DNA of 64,000 nt from Escherichia phage Ec_Makalu_001. Both the position numbers and the translations under genes were made by a program. The notes under the pieces are model-generated. The model was given only the letters and a program-made list of their open reading frames with translations. It searched no databases and was not told where the DNA came from. Shown in pieces: positions 3,031-21,088 of this stretch (positions are counted from its first letter, which is position 1; the number at the start of each line of letters is the position of its first letter). Location: the sequence record MN894885.1. One strand, written 5' to 3'.

Positions 3031-3227
3031 TACTTCGCCTCATTGACGATTAACAGGATAGTGATCAGTACCGGAAACTGGATCATGACAGTACCAATAA
3101 ACCGGATAAACGCATTTTCTGACTTCCACACATGACATGCGACTAGCTGATAGACCATTGTTGCAACCAAAGCCAGAAAATACATCTCGATTGGCGTTTC
3201 TTTGATCAATCGTACAATCTCATTCAT
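3030..3227 (-). CDS. Small hydrophobic membrane protein (65 aa)
   Basis: Two hydrophobic segments (LALVATMVYQLVA, VMIQFPVLITILLIV). Confidence 0.4.
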   Translation of the reverse strand: MNEIVRLIKETPIEMYFLALVATMVYQLVACHVWKSENAFIRFIGTVMIQFPVLITILLIVNEAK

Positions 3228-3427: not shown

Positions 3428-4630
3428 TTAATCACGAATGCGTAGAACTCGCTCTAACGTCTCTCGGTCCAGTTTATGTAACTCTTTGGAATGATACATG
3501 AAACCATTGCGAGATTCCATGCAAGTGCAATCACTATATTTTTCTTCCGCTGCCGCGATTGTCTCCAGATCTTTGGCGTACTTGCTGGTTGAATAAACTT
3601 CTCGGTTACGCCACTCTAACCCAGCCTCATTGAATTTAACAATCTCGTCAAATACCCACCATCCAATGTAGATAAATGAAGTTTTGCGCCACGGGATCGG
3701 GTGTACGTAACGAAACATTTTAACAACTTCCATTGAACATTTTCTACTTGTACTTGTTGCAACTTCTACTGTTTCATCTTCGATCTGTTGATATAGTTTA
3801 GCAACACACCAGAATTTGGCTGTGTCATCGTAAGTAGCACTCTCTTTGAACAGATGACCGTCTAGCATGATAGAAAATCCTTCCAGTGCTTCGCCGACCT
3901 CACTACCGATTAGAGTCGGTGACAGTTGTCCTTCGCGCTGCAAATACCAGTTATGTTTGATCGTCAATGTAGGCATACCGCTAGAATCGCCTACAATGTC
4001 CTCTGACACAACATAATTAAGTGAGATCTCATTACCTAGTGCCACGGTCTTTGATTCCACCACATCCTGTTCTACGTTCATTGTTGCCAGCATGATTTTA
4101 GTCGATGCGCTATCGGCTGAATCTTCCGACTCACCCCACACTTTTACAGTATACACGCCGTTTTTATCTGCTGTAAATTTTTGGATCGTAATATCCTGTG
4201 TTGTGTCTATAACTTCTTCGCCCTTACTCCAACTATAATGTAGTTCATAGTTGTCTGCTGGAGTCTTCCCACCCGAAAATTTTACTGTTGCATGTAATTC
4301 TACGTTTGTTTGTGATGATACGTAGAATTGCTGCGGTTCGGTGATATTTACGATTAATTCAGCTTCTTCCATGAGGAAAACTTCAGATTCTACTGATTCC
4401 ATCGTATCGGTATCTTGTACCGTTACTTTATAGCTACCCGCATTTTCACTTGTTGCGTCTGCTACAGTTAGCGTAGCTGTGCTATTTTCATGCGGTTGGT
4501 CGTCTTTTGTCCATGTATATGTCAAATTGCTGGGTAATGGTTCGTCACCCGCTACAGTCGCCGTTAAGGTGAAACCATCTCCAGCAAGAAAACATCTTTT
4601 GTTGGATTGTATTGATACTGTGAAAGCCAT
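3428..4630 (-). CDS. hoc: Hoc-like outer capsid decoration protein with Ig-like repeats
   Basis: 400 aa ORF; repeated beta-rich Ig-like segments (e.g. YTWTKDDQ...SYKVTVQD; YSWSKGEE...VYTVKVWG) and conserved C-terminal capsid-binding-like region; position between gene 24 and uvsW as in T4. Confidence 0.7.
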   Translation of the reverse strand: MAFTVSIQSNKRCFLAGDGFTLTATVAGDEPLPSNLTYTWTKDDQPHENSTATLTVADATSENAGSYKVTVQDTDTMESVESEVFLMEEAELIVNITEPQQFYVSSQTNVELHATVKFSGGKTPADNYELHYSWSKGEEVIDTTQDITIQKFTADKNGVYTVKVWGESEDSADSASTKIMLATMNVEQDVVESKTVALGNEISLNYVVSEDIVGDSSGMPTLTIKHNWYLQREGQLSPTLIGSEVGEALEGFSIMLDGHLFKESATYDDTAKFWCVAKLYQQIEDETVEVATSTSRKCSMEVVKMFRYVHPIPWRKTSFIYIGWWVFDEIVKFNEAGLEWRNREVYSTSKYAKDLETIAAAEEKYSDCTCMESRNGFMYHSKELHKLDRETLERVLRIRD

Positions 4631-8661: not shown

Positions 8662-9287
8662 AGAATTTTAAGGAAACTGGATAGACCTGATAATGAATAT
8701 ACACCAGATTCCCCGCATTCGCATTTGATCGGTACTGCCAGCGTGATTTGATTTCTTGTTAGCTCGTCGATCACTTCTTCCACTTTATCCGTGGTAAGCA
8801 TATCCAACACGCGGTCAAAGTCCTGCGCGTTCAGGTCGTCTATATTGAATTGCTGATCGCCGATCACGATATATTCGATACATGCAATTACCATCTGCAT
8901 AATATCAACATCTTCTGTAAACTTAGGTTGACGAAACTTGATTTTTACTTGTCCTAAGTCTAGAATATACGGTTCGACTTCTGGTATCTGTGTGCGTGAA
9001 ACATCAAGAGAATATACTTTCTCTTTATTGCATACACCACACACCCAAGTAGCATCAATTTTCATCTTATTGAGGCTGTGACACCATAAGAGAAGAAAAA
9101 TATATTCTGCTTCGCATTTCTCTAGCTCTAATGCATTGATCCCCGTACATTCGTATATAATCTCTATAACAACATCTGACAGCTTGCCAGTCTCTTTTGC
9201 TGCTACCAGTTTTTGAAATTCGCCGAAGGTGAAAGCACGGGCGTGTATCAACTTTTCGCCTATTTGGATCTTGAAAAAGTATTGCAT
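8658..9287 (-). CDS. 26: Baseplate hub protein gp26
   Basis: 209 aa ORF coupled to gene 25 (overlapping stop/start); starts MQYFF as T4 gp26; CxxC pairs; synteny. Confidence 0.55.
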   Translation of the reverse strand: MQYFFKIQIGEKLIHARAFTFGEFQKLVAAKETGKLSDVVIEIIYECTGINALELEKCEAEYIFLLLWCHSLNKMKIDATWVCGVCNKEKVYSLDVSRTQIPEVEPYILDLGQVKIKFRQPKFTEDVDIMQMVIACIEYIVIGDQQFNIDDLNAQDFDRVLDMLTTDKVEEVIDELTRNQITLAVPIKCECGESGVYSLSGLSSFLKIL

Positions 9288-9329
9288 AATAAAACACCCT
9301 TTATAAACACATAGAATTATTTAGTATTT

Positions 9330-9337
9330 TATAAATA
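9330..9337 (+). promoter_or_regulatory. T4-type late promoter motif TATAAATA upstream of gene 51
   Basis: Exact TATAAATA 21 bp upstream of the gene 51 ATG. Confidence 0.4.
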
Positions 9338-9357
9338 CCCGAAAGGGGGATTATACC

Positions 9358-10128
9358 ATGAATATTATCCGAATAAAACTACCGGAAGGTGTACAGCGAT
9401 TTAAACCATTCACGGTAAAAGATTATAGAGATTTCCTTCTGGTGTCAACTGAAATTAAGATGAATCCAGAAGAAGAACAAACTATACTGGATGAGCTACT
9501 AGAAGAAATATATCCAGACGTAGACCCTGCATTTCGTGAATATATTTTCCTGAACGTTTTTACTAGCTCAATAGGTAAAACAAAGATACCGCTTTGCTTT
9601 ACTTGCCCGACTTGCAACAAAGAAAGAAAAATGTTGCTCAACTTACAGGTCGAAGCACTAAAACCAATCGTTCTGGAGGCCGCAGGGCTTAAAATAACTT
9701 TCCGGTATGTGAAACCATCAACCGACTATGCAAAAACGTTTCTAGATGCGATAGAGCGTGTCTCTGATGGTGTTAATGATTATCTATGGACTGAATTACC
9801 GGAAGAAGTTAGAGATCAGGTTATCGATTCAATCTCATTTGCTGAATTTGAAGAAGTTGTTAAGCAGATGCACACGATCAAGATCGAACAAAAGATATCT
9901 TGCTGTGAAAGTCATGACCTGAAATACATAGGTCTTCTTCCATTATTCAAATTGTTGTTGAATCCAGATGAGTTATTCATCTTTTATCGAATAAACCATC
10001 TATTGGCAAAATCAAATTATTCTATCAGTGATCTTATGGACATGTTACCCGTCGAGAGAAACATTGCACTGACACTGGTCGAGAAAGACGTAAAAGAGGC
10101 AAACAATGCAAAGAACGGGGTTTCCTAA
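9358..10128 (+). CDS. 51: Baseplate hub assembly protein gp51
   Basis: 256 aa; divergently transcribed from gene 26 as in T4; CxxC...CxxC zinc-binding pairs; synteny. Confidence 0.55.
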   Translation: MNIIRIKLPEGVQRFKPFTVKDYRDFLLVSTEIKMNPEEEQTILDELLEEIYPDVDPAFREYIFLNVFTSSIGKTKIPLCFTCPTCNKERKMLLNLQVEALKPIVLEAAGLKITFRYVKPSTDYAKTFLDAIERVSDGVNDYLWTELPEEVRDQVIDSISFAEFEEVVKQMHTIKIEQKISCCESHDLKYIGLLPLFKLLLNPDELFIFYRINHLLAKSNYSISDLMDMLPVERNIALTLVEKDVKEANNAKNGVS

Positions 10129-14521: not shown

Positions 14522-15453
14522 TGTTTGATTTAAATGACTTTAACGAACAAGCCGCTAACCTTGACTTTCAGCGATCTAACTTATTCAGCGTGGCATTTGC
14601 CACCACTCCAAGTAATAAGACACAAGCGATCCTAGAAAGTATGGGCGGTGCGGTATATGATATTATACCAAATGCATTAAATGACTATTTCGGGATTACT
14701 CGTGGTGATTATACTGACGCATTAACAAATCTTGCTGTACAGGGTGTTAGGCGTGCTGTTGATTCATCCGGTGTCAAAAAGTATCTTTTAGGTGCAATGT
14801 CATCCCGCGTAGTTCAATCTCTTCTGGGGCAATTTGATGTTGGTACATATGCGCTTGACTGGTTCAATATGGCATATAAGACAAGCGGTCTTCTGGTGTA
14901 TGCTGTTAAGGTTCCAGAAAACAGATTGAATTATGAAATAGACCGTAACCACAATGCGCCAAACATTCGAATTACCGGACGTGATTTTGATCCGCTTGTA
15001 TTGAGCTTTAGAATGGACTCTAGCGCATCAAACTATAGAGCAATGCAGGATTGGGTTAACTCAGTAGAAGACCCAGTTACAGGGCTTCGTGCGCTTCCTG
15101 TTGACGTTGAAGCAGATATTCAGGTTAACTTACATAACCGAATGGGAGTTCCTCACACGATCATGATGTTTAATGGTTGTGTTCCTGTTGGTGTGAGTGC
15201 ACCGGAATTAACCTATGAAAATAACAACGAAATTACAACATTCGATGTTACTTTTGCGTATAGGACTATGCAAACTGGTGCTGTAGGAGAGCAAGCCGCG
15301 CGAGAATGGATTGAGGATAAGGCAATAAACGCAATAACAAACACTTTCGGCAACAATTTACTTGATAGTGGGTTATCTGCTGCTGGTAATGCTTTATCGC
15401 GTCTAAATGGCGTCGGTGGGCGTGTGGTGAATACTGTCACTAACTGGTTCTGA
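14521..15453 (+). CDS. 54: Baseplate tail tube initiator gp54
   Basis: 310 aa; synteny and size as T4 gp54. Confidence 0.65.
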   Translation: MFDLNDFNEQAANLDFQRSNLFSVAFATTPSNKTQAILESMGGAVYDIIPNALNDYFGITRGDYTDALTNLAVQGVRRAVDSSGVKKYLLGAMSSRVVQSLLGQFDVGTYALDWFNMAYKTSGLLVYAVKVPENRLNYEIDRNHNAPNIRITGRDFDPLVLSFRMDSSASNYRAMQDWVNSVEDPVTGLRALPVDVEADIQVNLHNRMGVPHTIMMFNGCVPVGVSAPELTYENNNEITTFDVTFAYRTMQTGAVGEQAAREWIEDKAINAITNTFGNNLLDSGLSAAGNALSRLNGVGGRVVNTVTNWF

Positions 15454-15461
15454 TAAGCGAA

Positions 15462-15492
15462 AGGCGGGGACAATCACCCGCCTTTTTATTTT
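15462..15492 (+). terminator. Rho-independent terminator after gene 54
   Basis: Hairpin aggcggg...cccgcct followed by TTTTTATTTT. Confidence 0.6.
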
Positions 15493-15971
15493 GCTAAATC
15501 ATTGCAATATTTTAGTGCCTTAGTTTGAAACTCTGCGCTGTTAAGTTCTTCATAACGGTCATAATCACCGTTTAATGCTGCCTTTCTTGCTTCTTGTTCT
15601 ATCTGCATGTCAGACATGATAATACAACGATCCCGCGCTTTCATCTTCTCAAGTTGTATAGACTCTTCTTGTTGCTTGCGCAATTCTTCTTGATGCTTCT
15701 TTTCTTCTCGTGCTTTCTCTTCCCGCGCTTCTTTGATTGCATCTTTGAACATCTGCGTTTGTGGTGCTAAACCAACTTTAACGCGATCCACGTCTCGACG
15801 TTCCATTTTAGAAATAAAGCATGATTCGATCTGGTCATCGCTTGCATATGCTGCTTTACATTCACGAAGCAAGAAAACCGGATCTGATTTAGCATTCATC
15901 ATAGCTTCCATGTTAGTACAACCAGTAAGCATGAATGCAGCCGCAAGACCAATCAGTTTAATCATTTTCAT
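15486..15971 (-). CDS. Predicted lipoprotein with coiled-coil
   Basis: Signal peptide with lipobox LTGC (MKMIKLIGLAAAFMLTGC); charged coiled-coil middle; coupled to upstream Alt-like gene. Confidence 0.55.
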   Translation of the reverse strand: MKMIKLIGLAAAFMLTGCTNMEAMMNAKSDPVFLLRECKAAYASDDQIESCFISKMERRDVDRVKVGLAPQTQMFKDAIKEAREEKAREEKKHQEELRKQQEESIQLEKMKARDRCIIMSDMQIEQEARKAALNGDYDRYEELNSAEFQTKALKYCNDLAK

Positions 15972-16792
15972 TTAGTCACCTCACCGAAAATTGTAAATTG
16001 TCTACGATTCTCATCGCCGAAAGATTCTACTACGTCGTTTACCTTGATGCAAGTCCCGCGCGGTAAAATTACTTCACATTCGCAAGGATTCCATGCAATA
16101 GACCCAACAACAAAACCTTTATGATCTTTTACGTCAATTACCCATGATACATTACAAGAATGTTGCATCTTTCCGGTCATTGATTCATATCGATTCTCAC
16201 AATAAAGGCTAGTGCTGTTTGAAAGCCATCCTCCAAAGATGATCGGTGTCATGCTGGTCGATACAAAGTTTTTAAAGGTAAATTCCTTATCTTCAATAAT
16301 ACGCTCTATTGTCTGAATGTCAAGATGTTGACCGCGATAAAGAGTACCGTTTAACTTTTCGGTTTTATCCATGACACAATCCATCAAATCGACAATCTCT
16401 GATATCTCATCGGTCATGTCTTCTTCCCCTAAGAGAGCACCATTTACCCATTCGTATTGTTCAGACACATAATCGCAGATTGCATTATATTCTGCTGGGG
16501 TTATGTTGTTATGTTTGTAATGTTTGAATACATTATCTCCAAAATCTTCGGAATGTACTTCATACATCACATTAATGATTTTCTTGACAAATCCATAATC
16601 TTGCGTTTCTCGCTCAAGGAAACGGATAACTTTCACGTAATCATCAAAGTTAATATGATCGCTGATCATTTCAGTGATCATGTAACCATTAATCCCCTCA
16701 ATGCCATATGTTTCGATGTAATTATCCATACGTTCCATCATTGATTCGCGTGATTCTTCTGAAAGGCGAAAATCCTGTAATTTCTTGAACAT
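15968..16792 (-). CDS. ADP-ribosyltransferase, Alt/Mod-like paralogue
   Basis: 274 aa; ART catalytic signature: YRG (Arg), FVSTS (STS motif), ECEVILPRG (ExE) in correct order. Confidence 0.6.
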   Translation of the reverse strand: MFKKLQDFRLSEESRESMMERMDNYIETYGIEGINGYMITEMISDHINFDDYVKVIRFLERETQDYGFVKKIINVMYEVHSEDFGDNVFKHYKHNNITPAEYNAICDYVSEQYEWVNGALLGEEDMTDEISEIVDLMDCVMDKTEKLNGTLYRGQHLDIQTIERIIEDKEFTFKNFVSTSMTPIIFGGWLSNSTSLYCENRYESMTGKMQHSCNVSWVIDVKDHKGFVVGSIAWNPCECEVILPRGTCIKVNDVVESFGDENRRQFTIFGEVTK

Positions 16793-16816
16793 TTTAAACC
16801 TCCCATATAACAGAAA

Positions 16817-16843
16817 ACGGGGCTAGTATAAAACTAGTCCCCG
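16817..16843. other. Perfect 11-bp stem-loop between the two ADP-ribosyltransferase genes
   Basis: acggggctagt-ataaa-actagtccccgt read directly; weak U-run, so a processing site is as plausible as a terminator. Confidence 0.4.
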
Positions 16844-16871
16844 TTTGAGTCAACCATTATTTCTTAAAAAA

Positions 16872-18923
16872 TTACATTTTAAATTTATCCGGCATAGCGT
16901 CTACAGACACAAGATCAGCGATAAGCTGACGTAGAGTTGCCTTATCTGCTTTCTTACGTTCGGTTTTAGCTTCGGTAATGAAGCTGGAGAAAGACAGGTC
17001 AGAAGCAGGTTTAACAACACCTTCACGGATGAATGCATCACCGTCCGCGATCATCTCACCAGATTCTTGTAATGCTGCCAGTTCATTTTTGTTCATAATA
17101 TGTGCCTCGATGTAATAAGTTTCTTGTGAATCCGTCGATGCCGTAGCACGAGTTACCGTATCAAAGGATAACACAACACCGCGAGGAAGTAAAATCTCGC
17201 ATTCTTTGTAAGCAAATGCTTTGTTACCTACTGGCAATACAGGGATGTTTTCCGCGCCAGCAATGGAGAAAGCAACATTAGCGCCACCTTCACCGCGAGA
17301 TCCAGCCATAGAATCAACACCAGCAACGGCACTAGCCACGTTTGCATTCCATCCACCAAAAATATTAGGTGCAAGGGAAGTGCTCACATAGTTTTTAAAG
17401 TAAAACGCTTTTTGCTTACGTGCAGTTTCCCACATTTGAGAACGGAAGTCCATACCACGATACAAGATAGTACCTGGATCAAGTTTAACACCATAGTTAG
17501 CAAATGCGTTATCCAGTGCATCACACATCTTGACCAATTCTTCTGGGTCTGCGATGCCTTCAAACTCTTCCAGCTTACGGTCGGTTAGGAAGTTGTTCAT
17601 ATTGATGTATGCTGCATCCGCATATTCGCTCAACACAAAACCTTCCGCGCCAGGCAGATCAAGATCAATATCTGCCATCATTTCACCCATGTTGCTAGCA
17701 ATTGCTTCAAACATACCGGAAGCAACATTACGCAGGGCATCGGTTTTAATCTGCGTGATGTGACTACGCAGCATTTCAGCTTTTACATCTGCTGGCATAG
17801 ACTGGTCGACGCGATCCATTGCTAGGGCGGTGATCTTGTTTTCAAACACTTCTTCATTCATGATTTCTTTTAAGCGTTTGATTGATGCTGCGATAACTTC
17901 CGCAGACAACGGATCATATTGATCCTGAACTTTTACCAGTTCGCTTACTGCGTATTTTGCATCGGCTTCGCTTTCAAAAATAGTACGCATGAAACCATAG
18001 CGAGTGATAATATCACTTGTCCAGTCATTCAGAGAACGGGCGGTTGAACGTTCTAAGGCTTGACGGTCAATCAGAGTATTAAACTGTTTCTTAGGTTCTG
18101 CTTCGGTGATATCTTCTTCCGGTTTAAGATTAATTTTTTCTGGATGATTCACATAGTCGCTGTTATAGGTCGCTTGAGTTTTCAGCATTTCTTCTTTAGT
18201 CAAACGAGATTTAGCCGCTACGCGTTGTTCTGCTTCCGCGTTTCGTTCTTCTTCTGACACAAGACTAGCCGCATACGCCTCATCTTTAGTCAGAGATTCA
18301 CCAGTAGCCTTAGATACCCAGCGATCACCTAAATCACTTTCTACTTTAGTGAACAGGGATTCATCGAGTTTAATCCCTTTAATCTTATCAATCGCCATCC
18401 CGCGACGTTTGACAACAACTAAAGCGATCTTTTTGCTGGTCATTACTTCCTGCTGGAATACTTCAAACTTCGGTGTACGACGCACCAAACGCTCTATAAC
18501 GCGCTTAACCAGTTCGGTCTTACCTTTCATGCGGGATACGTTAAAACGGAACATAACAGCGTCTAATTGCGCTTTACGGGCTGTTTCCATAACCACATCA
18601 AAAGCACTTGACATAACTGCAATTGGGTTATCTCCTAGACCATTTTTAAGCTGTACAATACGACCGCTTTTGTTCATTTCGCACAGTACAACATGTGCGG
18701 TCTTGTCACCCATACGAATGATTTTAGGTGTTTTGTTGGTGAAGTTACAAAGACGGACAATCACATCTTTATCGCGTGTCTGTACTGCAAAAAGCTGTTT
18801 AGGATTCTGCTTAGGCTTTAAGCACTGTACCGGAGCAATACTGCCAAAGTTTTCTTCCTCTTCCGTCAACAGCCATTTCTCGAAAGATTCAATCATTAGA
18901 TCGTCGATTTCTAAGTTAAACAT
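16872..18923 (-). CDS. alt: Alt ADP-ribosyltransferase (head-packaged)
   Basis: 683 aa (T4 Alt is 682 aa); C-terminal ART signature ILYRG, YVSTS, ECEILLPRG; synteny after gene 54. Confidence 0.75.
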   Translation of the reverse strand: MFNLEIDDLMIESFEKWLLTEEEENFGSIAPVQCLKPKQNPKQLFAVQTRDKDVIVRLCNFTNKTPKIIRMGDKTAHVVLCEMNKSGRIVQLKNGLGDNPIAVMSSAFDVVMETARKAQLDAVMFRFNVSRMKGKTELVKRVIERLVRRTPKFEVFQQEVMTSKKIALVVVKRRGMAIDKIKGIKLDESLFTKVESDLGDRWVSKATGESLTKDEAYAASLVSEEERNAEAEQRVAAKSRLTKEEMLKTQATYNSDYVNHPEKINLKPEEDITEAEPKKQFNTLIDRQALERSTARSLNDWTSDIITRYGFMRTIFESEADAKYAVSELVKVQDQYDPLSAEVIAASIKRLKEIMNEEVFENKITALAMDRVDQSMPADVKAEMLRSHITQIKTDALRNVASGMFEAIASNMGEMMADIDLDLPGAEGFVLSEYADAAYINMNNFLTDRKLEEFEGIADPEELVKMCDALDNAFANYGVKLDPGTILYRGMDFRSQMWETARKQKAFYFKNYVSTSLAPNIFGGWNANVASAVAGVDSMAGSRGEGGANVAFSIAGAENIPVLPVGNKAFAYKECEILLPRGVVLSFDTVTRATASTDSQETYYIEAHIMNKNELAALQESGEMIADGDAFIREGVVKPASDLSFSSFITEAKTERKKADKATLRQLIADLVSVDAMPDKFKM

Positions 18924-18964
18924 TTTATATCCTCTAGTTGATAACCTATAAACCTATATTTATG

Positions 18965-18985
18965 AAAAAGGGGCTTAACGCCCCC
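18965..18985 (-). terminator. Rho-independent terminator (minus strand); same hairpin recurs at 22987-23006
   Basis: Hairpin ggggc-gttaa-gcccc followed by U-run on minus strand. Confidence 0.5.
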
Positions 18986-18990
18986 ATTTA

Positions 18991-19203
18991 TTATAATGCA
19001 CCATCGAGCAATTGCTCTAAGGTGTATCCTGAATAGTCTTTTTCAATCAGGATATATTTTCCTACTCGTTTAATACAACCGCGCATTTCAACGTATTCTG
19101 CGTAGTTGATGGTGCGAGTTGTTCCATCTTCTAGTAAAGCAGTACCGATTTCGTTAATGCGGTCATAAGTTACGTCGGTAATGATGATTTCGATGTTAGC
19201 CAT
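18991..19203 (-). CDS. Hypothetical small protein (70 aa)
   Basis: ORF preceded by cassette promoter and GGAG RBS. Confidence 0.45.
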   Translation of the reverse strand: MANIEIIITDVTYDRINEIGTALLEDGTTRTINYAEYVEMRGCIKRVGKYILIEKDYSGYTLEQLLDGAL

Positions 19204-19239
19204 TTGATACTCCTTAGTAGTTCGTTTCGGTATGGGTGT

Positions 19240-19268
19240 ATTATGATATACACCCTCTGTTATGTCAA
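19240..19268 (-). promoter_or_regulatory. Sigma70-like early promoter (PeSL-type cassette)
   Basis: Minus strand: TTGACA, 17-bp spacer, CATAAT; conserved leader with GGAG RBS follows. Confidence 0.55.
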
Positions 19269-19522: not shown

Positions 19523-20041
19523 TTAGTTATTTTTTAATTGCTCATCTTGCAATAGGGCAATCACATGCTGGCGATGTTCTTCCGATTGAGGAACACCGAA
19601 AAAGTTTGTTTTGTAGAAATACTCTAATCGGTCTTCTCGTGTGCTCTCTTCCATCATGATCGCGGGTAGTCCGAGATTTCGGAAACGTCGCTTTTCTGCT
19701 GGCGTAAAATCACTGTAATACAACATAGAATCATCATTACCAGCAATGCTAAACTCATCCTTCATAAAGGAGAATATTGCGTTTAAACGCTGTTTACCGT
19801 CCACGATTTCGATCTCATAGCGAGAGCCATCATCAATCTTAGCCATTGCGATAGCACCAACCGGAAAATCATTAATCAGGTTTTCGATAAACATACGTTT
19901 GTTTTCGGTGTCCCATACCAAAGGACGCTGATAATCTGGGTTCATGTTGATATAGCCATCTTCTAACCACGCCTCATAAACAGAGATGACAAAGTTTTTA
20001 GTATTGGTATAGTAACGGCGTTTAGGCGTTAAACGGTTCAT
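19523..20041 (-). CDS. DUF262 / ParB-like nuclease-domain protein
   Basis: About 172 aa from the internal ATG at 20041 (GGAG RBS; the longer track ORF to 20077 would overlap the upstream gene); motifs DYQRPLVWD and VDGKQRL match the DGQQR signature of the DUF262 ParB/Srx-fold domain; last gene of a coupled 5-gene operon. Confidence 0.5.
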   Translation of the reverse strand: MNRLTPKRRYYTNTKNFVISVYEAWLEDGYINMNPDYQRPLVWDTENKRMFIENLINDFPVGAIAMAKIDDGSRYEIEIVDGKQRLNAIFSFMKDEFSIAGNDDSMLYYSDFTPAEKRRFRNLGLPAIMMEESTREDRLEYFYKTNFFGVPQSEEHRQHVIALLQDEQLKNN

Positions 20042-20042
20042 G

Positions 20043-20375
20043 TTATAGTCTCCTGAATGGATCATCACGTAAATCAATATCTTTTAAGAACTCATCCCAT
20101 GAATGGCGGATATTGTTCTTAATTCTCCAGATAAGCGCAGGGATTGAACGCTCTCCCATCTGGAAGTAAGGATCATATGATCCATATGCCCAATATGCTA
20201 CTACAATTCCACAATCGGCGCAATAATATTCTATTTCACTTGCTGGCGACCAAAGTCCATCAATATGATCACGGATCTTGCTTTCGATGTTATGGCTATG
20301 GCAATCAGGGCAACGGATGCAATGACCTTGTTTATCGTAATTTGACGTTAGCGAATACTTAAACAATCTCATCAT
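20043..20375 (-). CDS. Zinc-ribbon protein
   Basis: 110 aa; CIRCPDCHSH and YYCADCG Cys clusters; ATGA overlap with upstream gene. Confidence 0.45.
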   Translation of the reverse strand: MMRLFKYSLTSNYDKQGHCIRCPDCHSHNIESKIRDHIDGLWSPASEIEYYCADCGIVVAYWAYGSYDPYFQMGERSIPALIWRIKNNIRHSWDEFLKDIDLRDDPFRRL

Positions 20376-21088
20376 AGATCCTTATTGGCTTCAAATACTG
20401 CCTTTGCGAATCCTCGCGGGGTAAGTGACCTGATAGTCTTTGTTCTGGTTCCTTTCCCGCCTAGCTTAGAATGCTGTTTACTGTACCCTTTATTAATCTG
20501 CAACGGTTTCTTTTCTGGCATTATAAAGCCTTGTCCGGTCCATAAGCAAGTCTTTTTCGGGTACATATCACGGGCGGCAATATACTCAGGAAACGTAGGA
20601 TGCTTATCATCTTCCGGCAAATAACCGCCATATTCCCACGGATGGAACATGTAATCAGGCTTACGCCACATGCTAGAGATAACGCTTACAGGATTCTCTA
20701 TCATGTAGGGAACTCCTAGCCATTCACCCAAATAAGCGGTTATTTTAGCTGCCCTTACATCATGAACTTGAATTAATGGTCCTTGTTCTCGTTTCTTTCG
20801 TTCAAAGTGCGCAGCGCCACTAACAGCTAAATTGGTGCATGGTGGGAATGCAAAGATAATATCCGGTTTCCCCCATTCAAGGTCCATTGCTCTTTCCAGC
20901 CAATTTAAATCAATCCATGTGTTTACATATGTAATGTTTGGATGTTCAAATCGGGTATTATATTTTTTGTATGTACCGTGGTCGCCATCGTCAGCATTAA
21001 AGCAGATCACCTTATGACCTGCTTTAGCCCATTCTAACCCCATTATCCCCGATCCGTCAAAGTTGCAGAATATTAATTTTTGTTTCAT
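20372..21088 (-). CDS. C5-cytosine methyltransferase-like protein (compact; PPC catalytic motif)
   Basis: 238 aa; motif I-like FCNFDGSGIMG (FxGxG), motif IV-like FAFPPCT (PC catalytic Cys), motif VI-like IENPV (ENV); no obvious target-recognition domain. Confidence 0.4.
   Translation of the reverse strand: MKQKLIFCNFDGSGIMGLEWAKAGHKVICFNADDGDHGTYKKYNTRFEHPNITYVNTWIDLNWLERAMDLEWGKPDIIFAFPPCTNLAVSGAAHFERKKREQGPLIQVHDVRAAKITAYLGEWLGVPYMIENPVSVISSMWRKPDYMFHPWEYGGYLPEDDKHPTFPEYIAARDMYPKKTCLWTGQGFIMPEKKPLQINKGYSKQHSKLGGKGTRTKTIRSLTPRGFAKAVFEANKDL

Follow-up and report, generated by a model that had tools for sequence, protein, structure and literature searches.

A short second ADP-ribosyltransferase gene and an allelic putative lipoprotein gene in the alt region of a Krischvirus coliphage

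Introduction

Bacteriophage T4 encodes Alt, a packaged mono-ADP-ribosyltransferase (ART) of the R-S-ExE type, and its alt, alt.-1, and alt.-2 genes lie between the early genes on the gene 30 side and gene 54, the same genome position as the locus described here. In the T4 annotation, alt.-1 and alt.-2 together are a deleted, frameshifted second copy of alt. The slot between these alt copies and gene 54 is occupied by alt.-3, a dispensable accessory gene of unknown function; alt.-3 mutants with a C-terminal extension let T4 escape CmdTAC defence (PMC11618068). Nolan et al. (2006; PMC1524935) listed RB49ORF183c of phage RB49 as a paralogue that arose by duplication of alt, the neighboring gene. 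The alt region of RB49-like (Krischvirus) coliphages is already known, and most of its features have been annotated before. We analyzed this region in Escherichia phage Ec_Makalu_001 (sequence record MN894885.1); "the window" is the whole stretch of 64,000 nucleotides that was analyzed, and positions are counted from its first nucleotide.

Results

The window comes from a Krischvirus of the RB49/Phi1/GEC-3S type and was 99.5% identical to phage Ec_Makalu_003. The same block was found in 58 deposited phages, several of which annotate two ADP-ribosyltransferases and one of which also annotates a putative lipoprotein. A preliminary description, made from the sequence alone, had reported two ART open reading frames followed by a lipoprotein open reading frame. 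All three were located on the minus strand, which confirmed the observation; its interpretation was partly supported. The features of the region were as follows.

18957..18985, minus strand: element 5' of alt, a terminator-like hairpin plus a late-promoter-like match (sequence, terminator scan)
16872..18923, minus strand: alt, encoding a full-length 683-aa Alt-like ADP-ribosyltransferase with N-terminal domain (ORF, phrog_802, PF03496)
16825..16853, minus strand: sigma-70-type promoter overlapping the hairpin, TTGACT-17-TATACT (scan 10/12, conservation, GEC-3S promoter annotation)
16815..16846, minus strand: conserved intrinsic-terminator-like hairpin between alt and ART2 (fold, consensus fold, Ec_Makalu_003 terminator annotation)
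15968..16792, minus strand: ART2, a 274-aa short Alt paralogue of the RB49ORF183c family (PF03496, phrog_15144, predicted fold)
15968..15971, minus strand: ATGA shared by the stop codon of ART2 and the start codon of the lipoprotein gene (sequence)
15486..15971, minus strand: lipoprotein gene, 161 aa (ORF, phrog_16112, W115 annotation)
15500..15930, minus strand: allelic cassette, the coding region of the mature lipoprotein (sliding-window identity, protein identities, dS)
15459..15486, both strands: bidirectional terminator at the junction of the lipoprotein gene and gene 54 (terminator scan; annotated on both strands in GEC-3S and Ec_Makalu_003)

The alt product matched phrog_802 ('Alt-like') of PHROG over residues 16-683 (E=1.4e-179) and PF03496 ADPrib_exo_Tox over residues 426-610 (36.2 bits, E=5e-9; gathering score 23.4), and it is annotated as Alt in GEC-3S, JK32, and E26. 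Its LYRG, STS, and ECE motifs aligned with those of T4 Alt, the N-terminal Alt domain of ~320 residues (PF26846 Tevenvirinae_ADPRT in precomputed hits) was present, and dN/dS was 0.01-0.04. By analogy with T4, this Alt would be carried in the phage head and enter the cell together with the DNA. The hairpin upstream of alt, GGGGGCGTTAAGCCCCT followed by TTTTT, spanned 18969-18985, where GEC-3S annotates a terminator. Next to it, CATAAATA at 18957-18964 matched 7 of the 8 positions of the T4 late-promoter consensus TATAAATA and, read from that consensus, could be a late promoter. Lying behind its own terminator and CATAAATA, alt would form the first of two minus-strand transcription units.

A perfect 11-bp stem-loop at 16817-16843 had been reported between the two ART genes. 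A stem-loop was indeed present there, but it consisted of 8 bp, a bulged A, 5 bp, and a 5-nt loop at 16815-16846, followed by TTTT (16811-16814). A simple terminator scan did not list this hairpin, and the whole intergenic region had a fold z of -2.26 compared to shuffles. The consensus fold of 5 divergent sequences contained 13 pairs, and we regard the hairpin as real because it is conserved with two compensatory pairs. The sigma-70-type hexamers TTGACT (16848-16853) and TATACT (16825-16830) were separated by 17 nt, with the -10 hexamer lying in the loop and 3' arm of the hairpin. Both hexamers and the spacing were kept in L009, L012, L013, and L016 (ART2 42-83% identical), and the promoter/terminator composite as a whole, including the compensatory pairs, was conserved in relatives with ART2 only 42-48% identical. 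Independent annotators placed a promoter (GEC-3S) and a terminator (Ec_Makalu_003) at this same spot. The promoter scan overall showed no enrichment over shuffles (15 sites compared to 13.1 +/- 3.5), so the promoter call rests on conservation. These features suggest that the alt transcript would end at the hairpin and T-run, and that the early-type promoter inside the hairpin would start a second unit of ART2 and the lipoprotein gene, running to the bidirectional terminator before gene 54.

The complete R / STS / ExE signature attributed to the 274-aa protein was borne out by its PF03496 match and by alignment. The residues R153 (in LYRG; codon 16334-16336), S178-T179-S180 (16253-16261), and E238-C-E240 (E238 at 16079-16081, E240 at 16073-16075) were invariant in a 9-sequence alignment reaching down to 22% identity. 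Alignment with T4 Alt, ModA, and ModB, which the preliminary description had set as a check, placed the ExE of ART2 in the ExE columns of all three proteins, with the catalytic Glu present. Around R, STS, and ExE, ART2 also aligned with Tre1, SpvB, and Vis. The PF03496 match scored 58.1 bits (E=1e-15; cut-off 23.4), with residues 82-266 aligning to profile positions 2-187 of 196, and phrog_15144 ('ADP-ribosyltransferase') of PHROG was matched over the full length at E=2.5e-196. An AlphaFold2 model (pLDDT 82.6, pTM 0.80) predicted a C3/Vis-like fold; a Foldseek search with the model returned 138 PDB matches at E<=0.001, headed by Vis, Certhrax, C3bot, and CDTa with probability 1.0.

ART2 covered only positions 331-602 of the 674-position phrog_802 profile, and we therefore conclude that it is without the Alt N-terminal domain. 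In the alignment its start lay opposite approximately residue 300 of Alt, and it lacked ~320 residues found at the N-terminus of Alt and ~70 found at the C-terminus. The core of ART2 shared only 37% identity with the Alt of the same phage. The protein was 98-100% identical across 58 deposited Krischvirus genomes, and dN/dS was 0.03-0.05, indicating purifying selection like that on Alt. A Shine-Dalgarno sequence, GGGAGG, was located at 16799-16804. Membership of ART2 in the ModA/ModB family was considered and rejected: ART2 was 19% and 14% identical to these proteins in the alignment, showing no homology beyond the superfamily, and its PHROG matches were all Alt-like, with no Mod PHROG. In RB49, a distinct modB homologue (BLASTP E=8e-11 to T4 ModB) lies at the srd-modB position.

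The lipoprotein gene followed ART2 directly, as had been described, with ATGA at 15968-15971 containing both the stop and the start, and with GAGGT 6 nt upstream of the lipoprotein start. Such an overlap may give translational coupling. The junction varied in relatives, with overlaps of 8, 4, or 1 nt and gaps of 1 or 11 nt. Coupling to a lipoprotein had been called unusual, but such overlaps are ordinary in genomes of this type: by a hand count from the RB49 annotation, the first 50 kb contain 90 pairs of neighboring genes, 31 of which have stop/start overlaps.

The N-terminus of the 161-aa protein, MKMIKLIGLAAAFMLTGC, agreed with the earlier prediction of a lipoprotein with lipobox LTGC (MKMIKLIGLAAAFM-LTG-C18). 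Within its first ~35 residues it had a basic n-region, a hydrophobic h-region, and a lipobox of the form [LVI][ASTVI][GAS]C, the pattern that marks bacterial lipoproteins as Lgt/LspA substrates. The signal peptide is encoded at 15921-15971 and the predicted lipidated Cys18 at 15918-15920. Signal peptide and lipobox were invariant family-wide, including G17-C18 in 13 members, and across the scanned alt neighborhoods the lipobox regular expression matched the lipoprotein gene only. In E. coli, a residue other than Asp at position +2 predicts outer-membrane sorting. The +2 residue was Thr, Ala, or Ser, never Asp, and the lipoprotein is therefore probably sorted to the outer membrane. The mature part of 143 aa had four invariant cysteines (C38, C51, C116, and C156), and its AlphaFold2 model (pLDDT 86.9) was all helices, including a long helix at 72-133. 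Taken together, the sequence and the model suggest a helical protein that would be exported, lipidated at Cys18, and exposed to the periplasm, probably with two disulfide bonds.

Annotated in W115 as 'putative lipoprotein', the protein belongs to phrog_16112 (unknown function; E=3.8e-108). It is an orphan: only 10 clusters matched among 1.84 billion representatives, and searches of Pfam, NCBIfam, PDB, and BFVD gave no matches outside its own family. The family was always 3' of the short enzyme and was seen nowhere else.

DNA identity to E26 dropped from 96-100% to 15-45% in the cassette and recovered at the terminator, with sharp breakpoints. The mature lipoprotein was only 26-29% identical in phages with Alt and ART2 98-100% identical (Whisky, JK32, and E26; ART2 98-99%). 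Between alleles dS was saturated (1.5-2.0), and within an allele dN/dS was 0.11-0.14, indicating purifying selection. The E26-type allele was also found in L012, beside an 83%-identical ART2. These data suggest that the region evolves separately, as an accessory cassette with ancient alleles that would be exchanged by recombination between conserved flanks, namely the signal peptide and ART2 end on one side and the terminator and gene 54 on the other.

Discussion

On balance, we consider it probable that this locus is the inherited Krischvirus alt region arranged as two minus-strand units, one with alt and the other with ART2 and an independently evolving lipoprotein cassette. ART2 would be an old alt duplicate cut down to its catalytic module. 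From its sequence and predicted fold, it would be classed as a mono-ART of the R-S-ExE type that is active in the cytoplasm. In this ART superfamily ExE goes with arginine targets, and ART2 is probably arginine-specific. By analogy with T4 ModA and ModB, it may be synthesized from the injected genome instead of arriving in the virion, and may act on host proteins. A target set differing from that of Alt, as had been proposed, is plausible because the core is only 37% identical to Alt and ART2 is served by an early-type promoter of its own.

The loss of the N-terminal and C-terminal parts of Alt, and the precedent of T4 alt.-1 and alt.-2, could also mean that the 274-aa open reading frame is an inactive remnant of a duplicated alt, an outcome that the preliminary description had named as one that would overturn it. 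We find this very improbable. An intact open reading frame is present in 58 phage genomes, preceded by a Shine-Dalgarno sequence of its own and a conserved promoter, and it keeps the whole catalytic module, whereas T4 alt.-1 keeps the N-terminus only. The dN/dS, the invariance of R153, STS, and ExE at such low identity, and the confidently predicted ART fold likewise argue against a dead Alt fragment. The toxin/immunity-like pair that had been proposed, or a pair in which the lipoprotein directs the ART to the envelope, appears improbable. In every lineage found, including those with ART2 only 42% identical (lipoprotein profile E 4e-6), the genes overlap or lie <=11 nt apart, and the lipoprotein family has no other location. 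These cases all belong to a single lineage, however, in which the gene order is shared; the synteny is thus inseparable from inheritance and the adjacency may be plain descent. An export and lipidation signal is present on the lipoprotein only, which predicts different compartments for the two products, and within Krischvirus the lipoprotein alleles diverge strongly beside a nearly constant ART2 and reassort against ART2 variants. Toxin/immunity pairs, for example Tre1/Tri1, are marked by tight linkage, a shared compartment, and co-evolution; linkage was found here in that the genes were adjacent in all loci recovered, but the other two marks were not. Nor is it obvious why a lytic phage would need protection from its own ART, and to our knowledge T4 Alt, ModA, and ModB have no immunity protein. 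The lipoprotein would then not be an immunity partner of ART2, and nothing points to an envelope-associated role for ART2 itself.

Tentatively, the lipoprotein could be an early envelope-level conflict factor that excludes superinfecting or competing phages or counters an envelope-based host defence. A narrower version, in which it excludes superinfecting phages by masking a receptor, as T5 Llp and phi80 Cor do, and is matched to the receptor-binding protein of the same phage, is rather unlikely. An early-type promoter, an outer-membrane-type lipobox, and high polymorphism between close relatives would fit such a protein, and a tblastn search of the window and of RB49 1-50 kb including the syntenic slots, a weak test, found no Sp/Imm homologue. 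There was also a weak PHROG match to Cor (E=0.0084), but it spans residues 1-45 only, the signal peptide. The mature protein of 143 aa, predicted to be helical, is approximately twice the size of Llp or Cor, and the gene adjoins gene 54 rather than a receptor-binding protein or fibre gene. Furthermore, lipoprotein alleles do not co-vary with gp38 adhesin type: divergent alleles occur with RB49-type gp38 in Whisky, AV108, and PTE-Eco09 and with GEC-3S-type gp38 in E26, PHB13, and JK32, and the window-type allele is found with both. Being a predicted phage-encoded outer-membrane lipoprotein, it could instead be a lysis component, either an o-spanin or a unimolecular spanin, but we give this almost no credence. 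The upstream gene encodes a soluble ART, and no i-spanin with a transmembrane domain adjoins or embeds the gene; the C-terminus, KALKYCNDLAK, is not hydrophobic and forms no transmembrane segment; the gene has an early-type promoter; and the predicted protein, large, helical, and disulfide-containing, is unlike o-spanins. Spanins of the Rz/Rz1 type are reported among the Krischvirus core genes, at another place in the genome (PMC10194099).

Extending the conflict-factor reading, it is conceivable, though doubtful, that the lipoprotein founds a new class of envelope-conflict proteins: early, outer-membrane-anchored, disulfide-stabilized, and helical, with several ancient alleles recombining among otherwise near-identical Krischvirus genomes, as frequency-dependent selection would be expected to produce, and with a role in superinfection exclusion or anti-defence in phages whose searched regions gave no Sp or Imm homologue by tblastn. 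Its synteny with the short ART could then be a functional tie.

Comparison with known systems

T5 Llp, phi80/N15 Cor, and T4 Sp/Imm are early envelope-exported exclusion proteins, and Llp and Cor are outer-membrane lipoproteins, as is predicted here. Beyond the signal peptide, the lipoprotein has no homology to Llp, Cor, or Sp, and its predicted all-helical fold is different, with no PDB match. T4 alt.-3 lies in the same slot, but its 96-aa product is unrelated in sequence and has no signal peptide or lipobox; among the other T4-like phages examined, none was found to have a lipoprotein in this slot.

ART2 shares its fold and catalytic triad with the C3-like, Vis, Certhrax, and iota/CDTa toxins of PF03496 (target-normalized TM ~0.6, E ~1e-10). 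Identity to these bacterial toxins is only 15-18%; ART2 is an intracellular phage protein that lacks a component for secretion or translocation, and it has ExE where C3 has QxE. T4 ModA and ModB resemble ART2 in small size (200-274 aa), R-S-ExE motifs, and lack of a packaging domain, and all three are likely expressed early from the injected genome, the timing for ART2 being a prediction. Unlike T4 Alt, ART2 is without the N-terminal ~320 residues and the C-terminal tail and has its own sigma-70-type promoter, and head packaging is therefore unlikely. RB49ORF183c and phrog_15144 are the same protein as ART2. The tandem alt duplication and the catalytic motifs are common to T4 and this phage, with ART2 29% identical to T4 Alt in the alignment; the second alt copy of T4 is broken and holds N-terminal sequence only, whereas the copy here is intact and retains the catalytic half.

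Organization of the locus

The preliminary description had listed two ADP-ribosyltransferase (ART) genes followed by a lipoprotein gene, and all three open reading frames were present, with the following matches (cut-off for Pfam PF03496, 23.4 bits).

16872-18923, minus strand: Alt, 683 aa; PF03496, 36.2 bits; phrog_802 (Alt-like), E=1.4e-179
15968-16792, minus strand: ART2, 274 aa; PF03496, 58.1 bits; phrog_15144 ('ADP-ribosyltransferase'), E=2.5e-196
15486-15971, minus strand: lipoprotein, 161 aa; no PF03496 match; phrog_16112 (unknown function), E=3.8e-108

The lipoprotein has a lipobox and begins MKMIKLIGLAAAFMLTGC; its start overlaps the stop of ART2, the two sharing ATGA with a Shine-Dalgarno sequence, GAGGT, upstream. 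Tail-tube/baseplate genes (29, 48, and 54) flank the locus on the plus strand, which places it at the classical alt-54 junction of T4-type genomes. The 3.6-kb stretch around the three genes was 99.5% identical to Escherichia phage Ec_Makalu_003 and 95-99% identical to 56 further phages (including RB49, Phi1, JSE, GEC-3S, and ECD7), and all matching phages belong to the genus Krischvirus, Straboviridae.

The gene block is already known, having been deposited and annotated across dozens of Krischvirus genomes, and its direct importance is small. The three genes are annotated as Alt, hypothetical, and hypothetical in GEC-3S, with a promoter marked between Alt and the second gene, and as 'ADP-ribosyltransferase', 'ADP-ribosyltransferase', and 'putative lipoprotein' in W115; the Makalu_003 annotation has an additional terminator between both ART genes. 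The alt duplication was already described in print in 2006. In a limited literature search, we did not find reported either the behavior of the lipoprotein gene as a bounded allelic cassette or the conserved terminator/promoter hairpin between the ART genes.

Just upstream of alt, 19523-20077 on the minus strand encodes a 184-aa DUF262/GmrSD_N-like protein (annotated as DUF262 in W115; PF03235 matches the equivalent protein in a Hadza metagenome contig). Two genes beyond it, 20372-21088 on the minus strand encodes a 238-aa protein annotated in Makalu_003 as a putative C-5 cytosine DNA methylase. These two genes form a restriction-related pair within a lytic phage.

The short ADP-ribosyltransferase

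ART2 is an Alt paralogue cut down to the catalytic module. It aligned with positions 331-602 of the 674 in the Alt profile, without the N-terminal approximately 320 residues and the C-terminal tail of Alt, and its core shared 37% identity with the catalytic core of the neighboring Alt. The complete R/STS/ExE signature attributed to it (LYR153G, S178-T179-S180, and E238-C-E240) was confirmed by alignment. E238 and E240 were invariant among T4 Alt, ModA, and ModB, ART2, and the Alt of the window, and R153, S178, T179, S180, E238, and E240 were all invariant in an alignment of nine sequences comprising ART2 relatives and Alt. In the ART superfamily the ExE motif, unlike QxE, goes with arginine targets.

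The AlphaFold2 model of ART2 (pLDDT 82.6, pTM 0.80) had as its closest solved structures in Foldseek the R-S-E toxins Vis, Certhrax, C3, and CDTa/iota (probability 1.0, E approximately 1e-10); by sequence, Tre1, SpvB, and Vis were weakly matched in the PDB, in the region of the signature motifs. Compared with other Krischvirus genomes, dN/dS was 0.03-0.05 for ART2, comparable to 0.01-0.04 for Alt, and short ARTs (271-288 aa) with only 42-48% identity kept both the motifs and the genomic position, which argues that ART2 is not a decayed fragment. Taken together, the invariant signature residues, the low dN/dS, and the confident predicted fold support a second ART that is real and, as judged from sequence and model, probably functional. 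An inactive Alt fragment was rejected on the same three grounds. A limited literature search found no functional work on ORF183c, the RB49 member of this family, and no Krischvirus virion proteome.

In phage JK32, 9 nt are duplicated where ART2 begins (3171-3182 of its locus; MFKMFKQ...), giving an annotated 277-aa product; its downstream ATG is the start used by other phages.

The lipoprotein family

No name could be assigned to the lipoprotein, since no search led beyond its own family or matches to the signal peptide. There was no match in Pfam, whether for the lipoprotein alone or for all 13 family members, in NCBIfam, or in sequence and profile searches of the PDB, and a weak PHROG match to Cor was confined to the signal peptide. 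Among 1.84 billion representative proteins, a profile search recovered only 10 clusters, each with a lipobox and of 155-174 aa except for one 103-aa partial sequence. Positions G17-C18, C38, C51, D60, G67, C116, G135, and C156 were invariant; with four cysteines, the mature protein may form two disulfide bonds, which fits a periplasmic location. Residue +2 was never Asp, from which the E. coli sorting rule predicts sorting to the outer membrane. The AlphaFold2 model (pLDDT 86.9, pTM 0.54) was all-helical with a central helix of 62 residues, and in the PDB Foldseek found nothing of significant fold similarity, in BFVD only the family itself. In a metagenomic variant of 172 aa (P0032), the charged central helix contains an 11-residue tandem duplication (EEESRKENKHQ); indels occur at the same site in other alleles, making the long helix variable in length.

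Wherever a contig extended upstream, the family member lay directly 3' of a short ART, in the order Alt, short ART, lipoprotein, gene 54. When the alt neighborhoods of 32 IMG/VR T4-like loci were scanned for the family or for any lipobox ORF, the family was found in two Krischvirus loci only, and the 30 other neighborhoods had neither it nor a lipobox ORF of another kind. The T4 counterpart in this slot, alt.-3, is unrelated and non-exported. Functional work on the lipoprotein was not found in a limited literature search.

An allelic cassette that evolves apart from ART2

The lipoprotein gene was a sharply bounded allelic cassette of approximately 430 bp. DNA identity to phage E26 was 96-100% across ART2 and the signal-peptide codons, 15-45% from approximately position 15930, and >90% again once the terminator near 15500 was reached. 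The divergent tract stopped at this terminator in E26; in Whisky and JK32 it extended into the 3' part of gene 54 (equivalent to approximately 15290-15500 of the window). The E26-type allele was also present in L012, a more divergent relative.

Amino-acid identity (%) to the window at related loci
Whisky: Alt 99, ART2 99, mature lipoprotein 26, gp54 87
JK32: Alt 100, ART2 98, mature lipoprotein 26, gp54 87
E26: Alt 99, ART2 99, mature lipoprotein 29, gp54 99
Hadza metagenome contig: Alt 100, ART2 98, mature lipoprotein 82, gp54 93
L012: ART2 83, mature lipoprotein 28
L009 (more divergent relative): Alt 47, ART2 45, mature lipoprotein 39, gp54 81

Between alleles, dS was saturated (1.5-2.0), and within an allele dN/dS was 0.11-0.14; these values indicate old functional alleles rather than recent rapid divergence. 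The alleles are moved by recombination between conserved flanks. The GenBank record of E26 (MN655998) has no CDS annotated over its allele, where an intact 170-aa lipobox ORF is present (4001-4513 of its locus).

This decoupled evolution decides between the interpretations of the gene pair. A toxin/immunity-like pair had been proposed, but the mature lipoprotein was only 26-29% identical where ART2 was 98-99% identical, and the lipoprotein alone carries a predicted export signal; it is therefore no credible immunity partner. The differing predicted compartments and the decoupled evolution led us to reject both such a pair and an envelope-directed ART. Nor did the coupling prove unusual, as had been suggested. 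RefSeq annotates 91 CDS, all on the same strand, in RB49 positions 1-50,000, and by hand count 31 of the 90 adjacent gene pairs overlapped, 12 of them by exactly 4 nt. At the ART2/lipoprotein junction, the two genes of relatives either overlapped, by 8, 4, or 1 nt, or were separated by 1 or 11 nt. The ATGA overlap thus reflects genome packing and does not mark a special relationship.

With ART2 set apart, the lipoprotein might act as an envelope-level conflict factor, a tentative reading that fits its early-type promoter, export signal, and allele shuffling. A specific Llp/Cor-type mechanism appears improbable. We checked the idea of a receptor-matched exclusion protein like T5 Llp through co-variation with the gp38 adhesin, which in Krischvirus is of an RB49 type (94-100% identity) or a GEC-3S type (about 80-84%). 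Divergent lipoprotein alleles occurred with RB49-type gp38 in Whisky, AV108, and PTE-Eco09 and with GEC-3S-type gp38 in E26, PHB13, and JK32, and the window-type allele was found with both; by eye, among the listed records and uncorrected for phylogeny, allele and gp38 type were not associated, which speaks against receptor matching. A tblastn search of the window and of RB49 1-50 kb, which takes in the syntenic slots, found no homologue of T4 Sp or Imm; the test covered all but about 50 kb of the genome and is weak for small, fast-evolving proteins. An hhalign comparison of T4 Sp with the lipoprotein profile, likewise a weak negative, matched in the signal peptide only. The cassette offers an easy handle on envelope-level phage-phage and phage-host conflict in phages used in therapy.

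The element between the two ART genes

A perfect 11-bp stem-loop had been reported between the ART genes. The stem-loop is real, but that description was imprecise: the hairpin, at 16815-16846, has 8 pairs, a bulged A, 5 further pairs, and a 5-nt loop, and is followed by TTTT. The minus strand of the spacer also reads TTGACT, 17 nt, TATACT, and the hairpin covers the 17-nt spacer and the -10 hexamer. The whole promoter scan gave 15 sites compared to 13.1 +/- 3.5 in shuffled sequence and was not enriched, so a consensus match alone carries little weight and conservation matters. The hexamers, the 17-nt spacing, and the hairpin were kept in three divergent relatives (L009, L013, and L016) whose ART2 is only 42-46% identical, and relatives of this type had compensatory changes at two stem pairs. 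The composite is not universal, since in L017, the most distant relative, the spacer was only 26 nt (1504-1529 of that locus), with TTGACA kept and the hairpin absent.

We infer a compact, overlapping terminator and promoter at the hairpin. The terminator would end the alt transcript, and the promoter would start an early-type unit of ART2 and the lipoprotein gene that probably ends at a bidirectional terminator at 15459-15486. Upstream of alt, another terminator is followed by CATAAATA, which agrees with the T4 late-promoter consensus at 7 of 8 positions; by analogy with T4, this candidate late promoter would fit late synthesis of packaged Alt.

A near-consensus sigma-70 promoter (TTGACA-17-CATAAT, 11/12) was also seen at 19240-19268 on the minus strand, ahead of a 70-aa ORF at 18991-19203. 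This promoter and an inverted repeat at 19234-19255 overlap, as do the alt-ART2 promoter and its hairpin. Early promoters embedded in hairpins may be a recurring design of this genome.

Comparison with other T-even phages

RB49 also encodes a 167-aa modB homologue at 8917-9420, outside the window and at the usual srd-modB position, that is 33% identical to T4 ModB over 113 residues. Krischvirus ART genes are thus three, namely Alt, ART2, and ModB, and they are a natural subject for studying how packaged and newly made phage ARTs divide their targets among them.

The alt duplication is old and previously known. Nolan et al. (2006; PMC1524935) attributed RB49ORF183c, 44RRORF188c, and T4 alt.-1/alt.-2 to paralogous duplication of alt, and the T4 GenBank note gives alt.-1 and alt.-2 as a second alt copy, deleted and frameshifted. 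The translation of T4 alt.-1 was similar to the N-terminus of Alt, and many other T-even records had two or three Alt-like places. In T4 the duplicate has decayed, whereas in Krischvirus the short paralogue is intact and strongly constrained.
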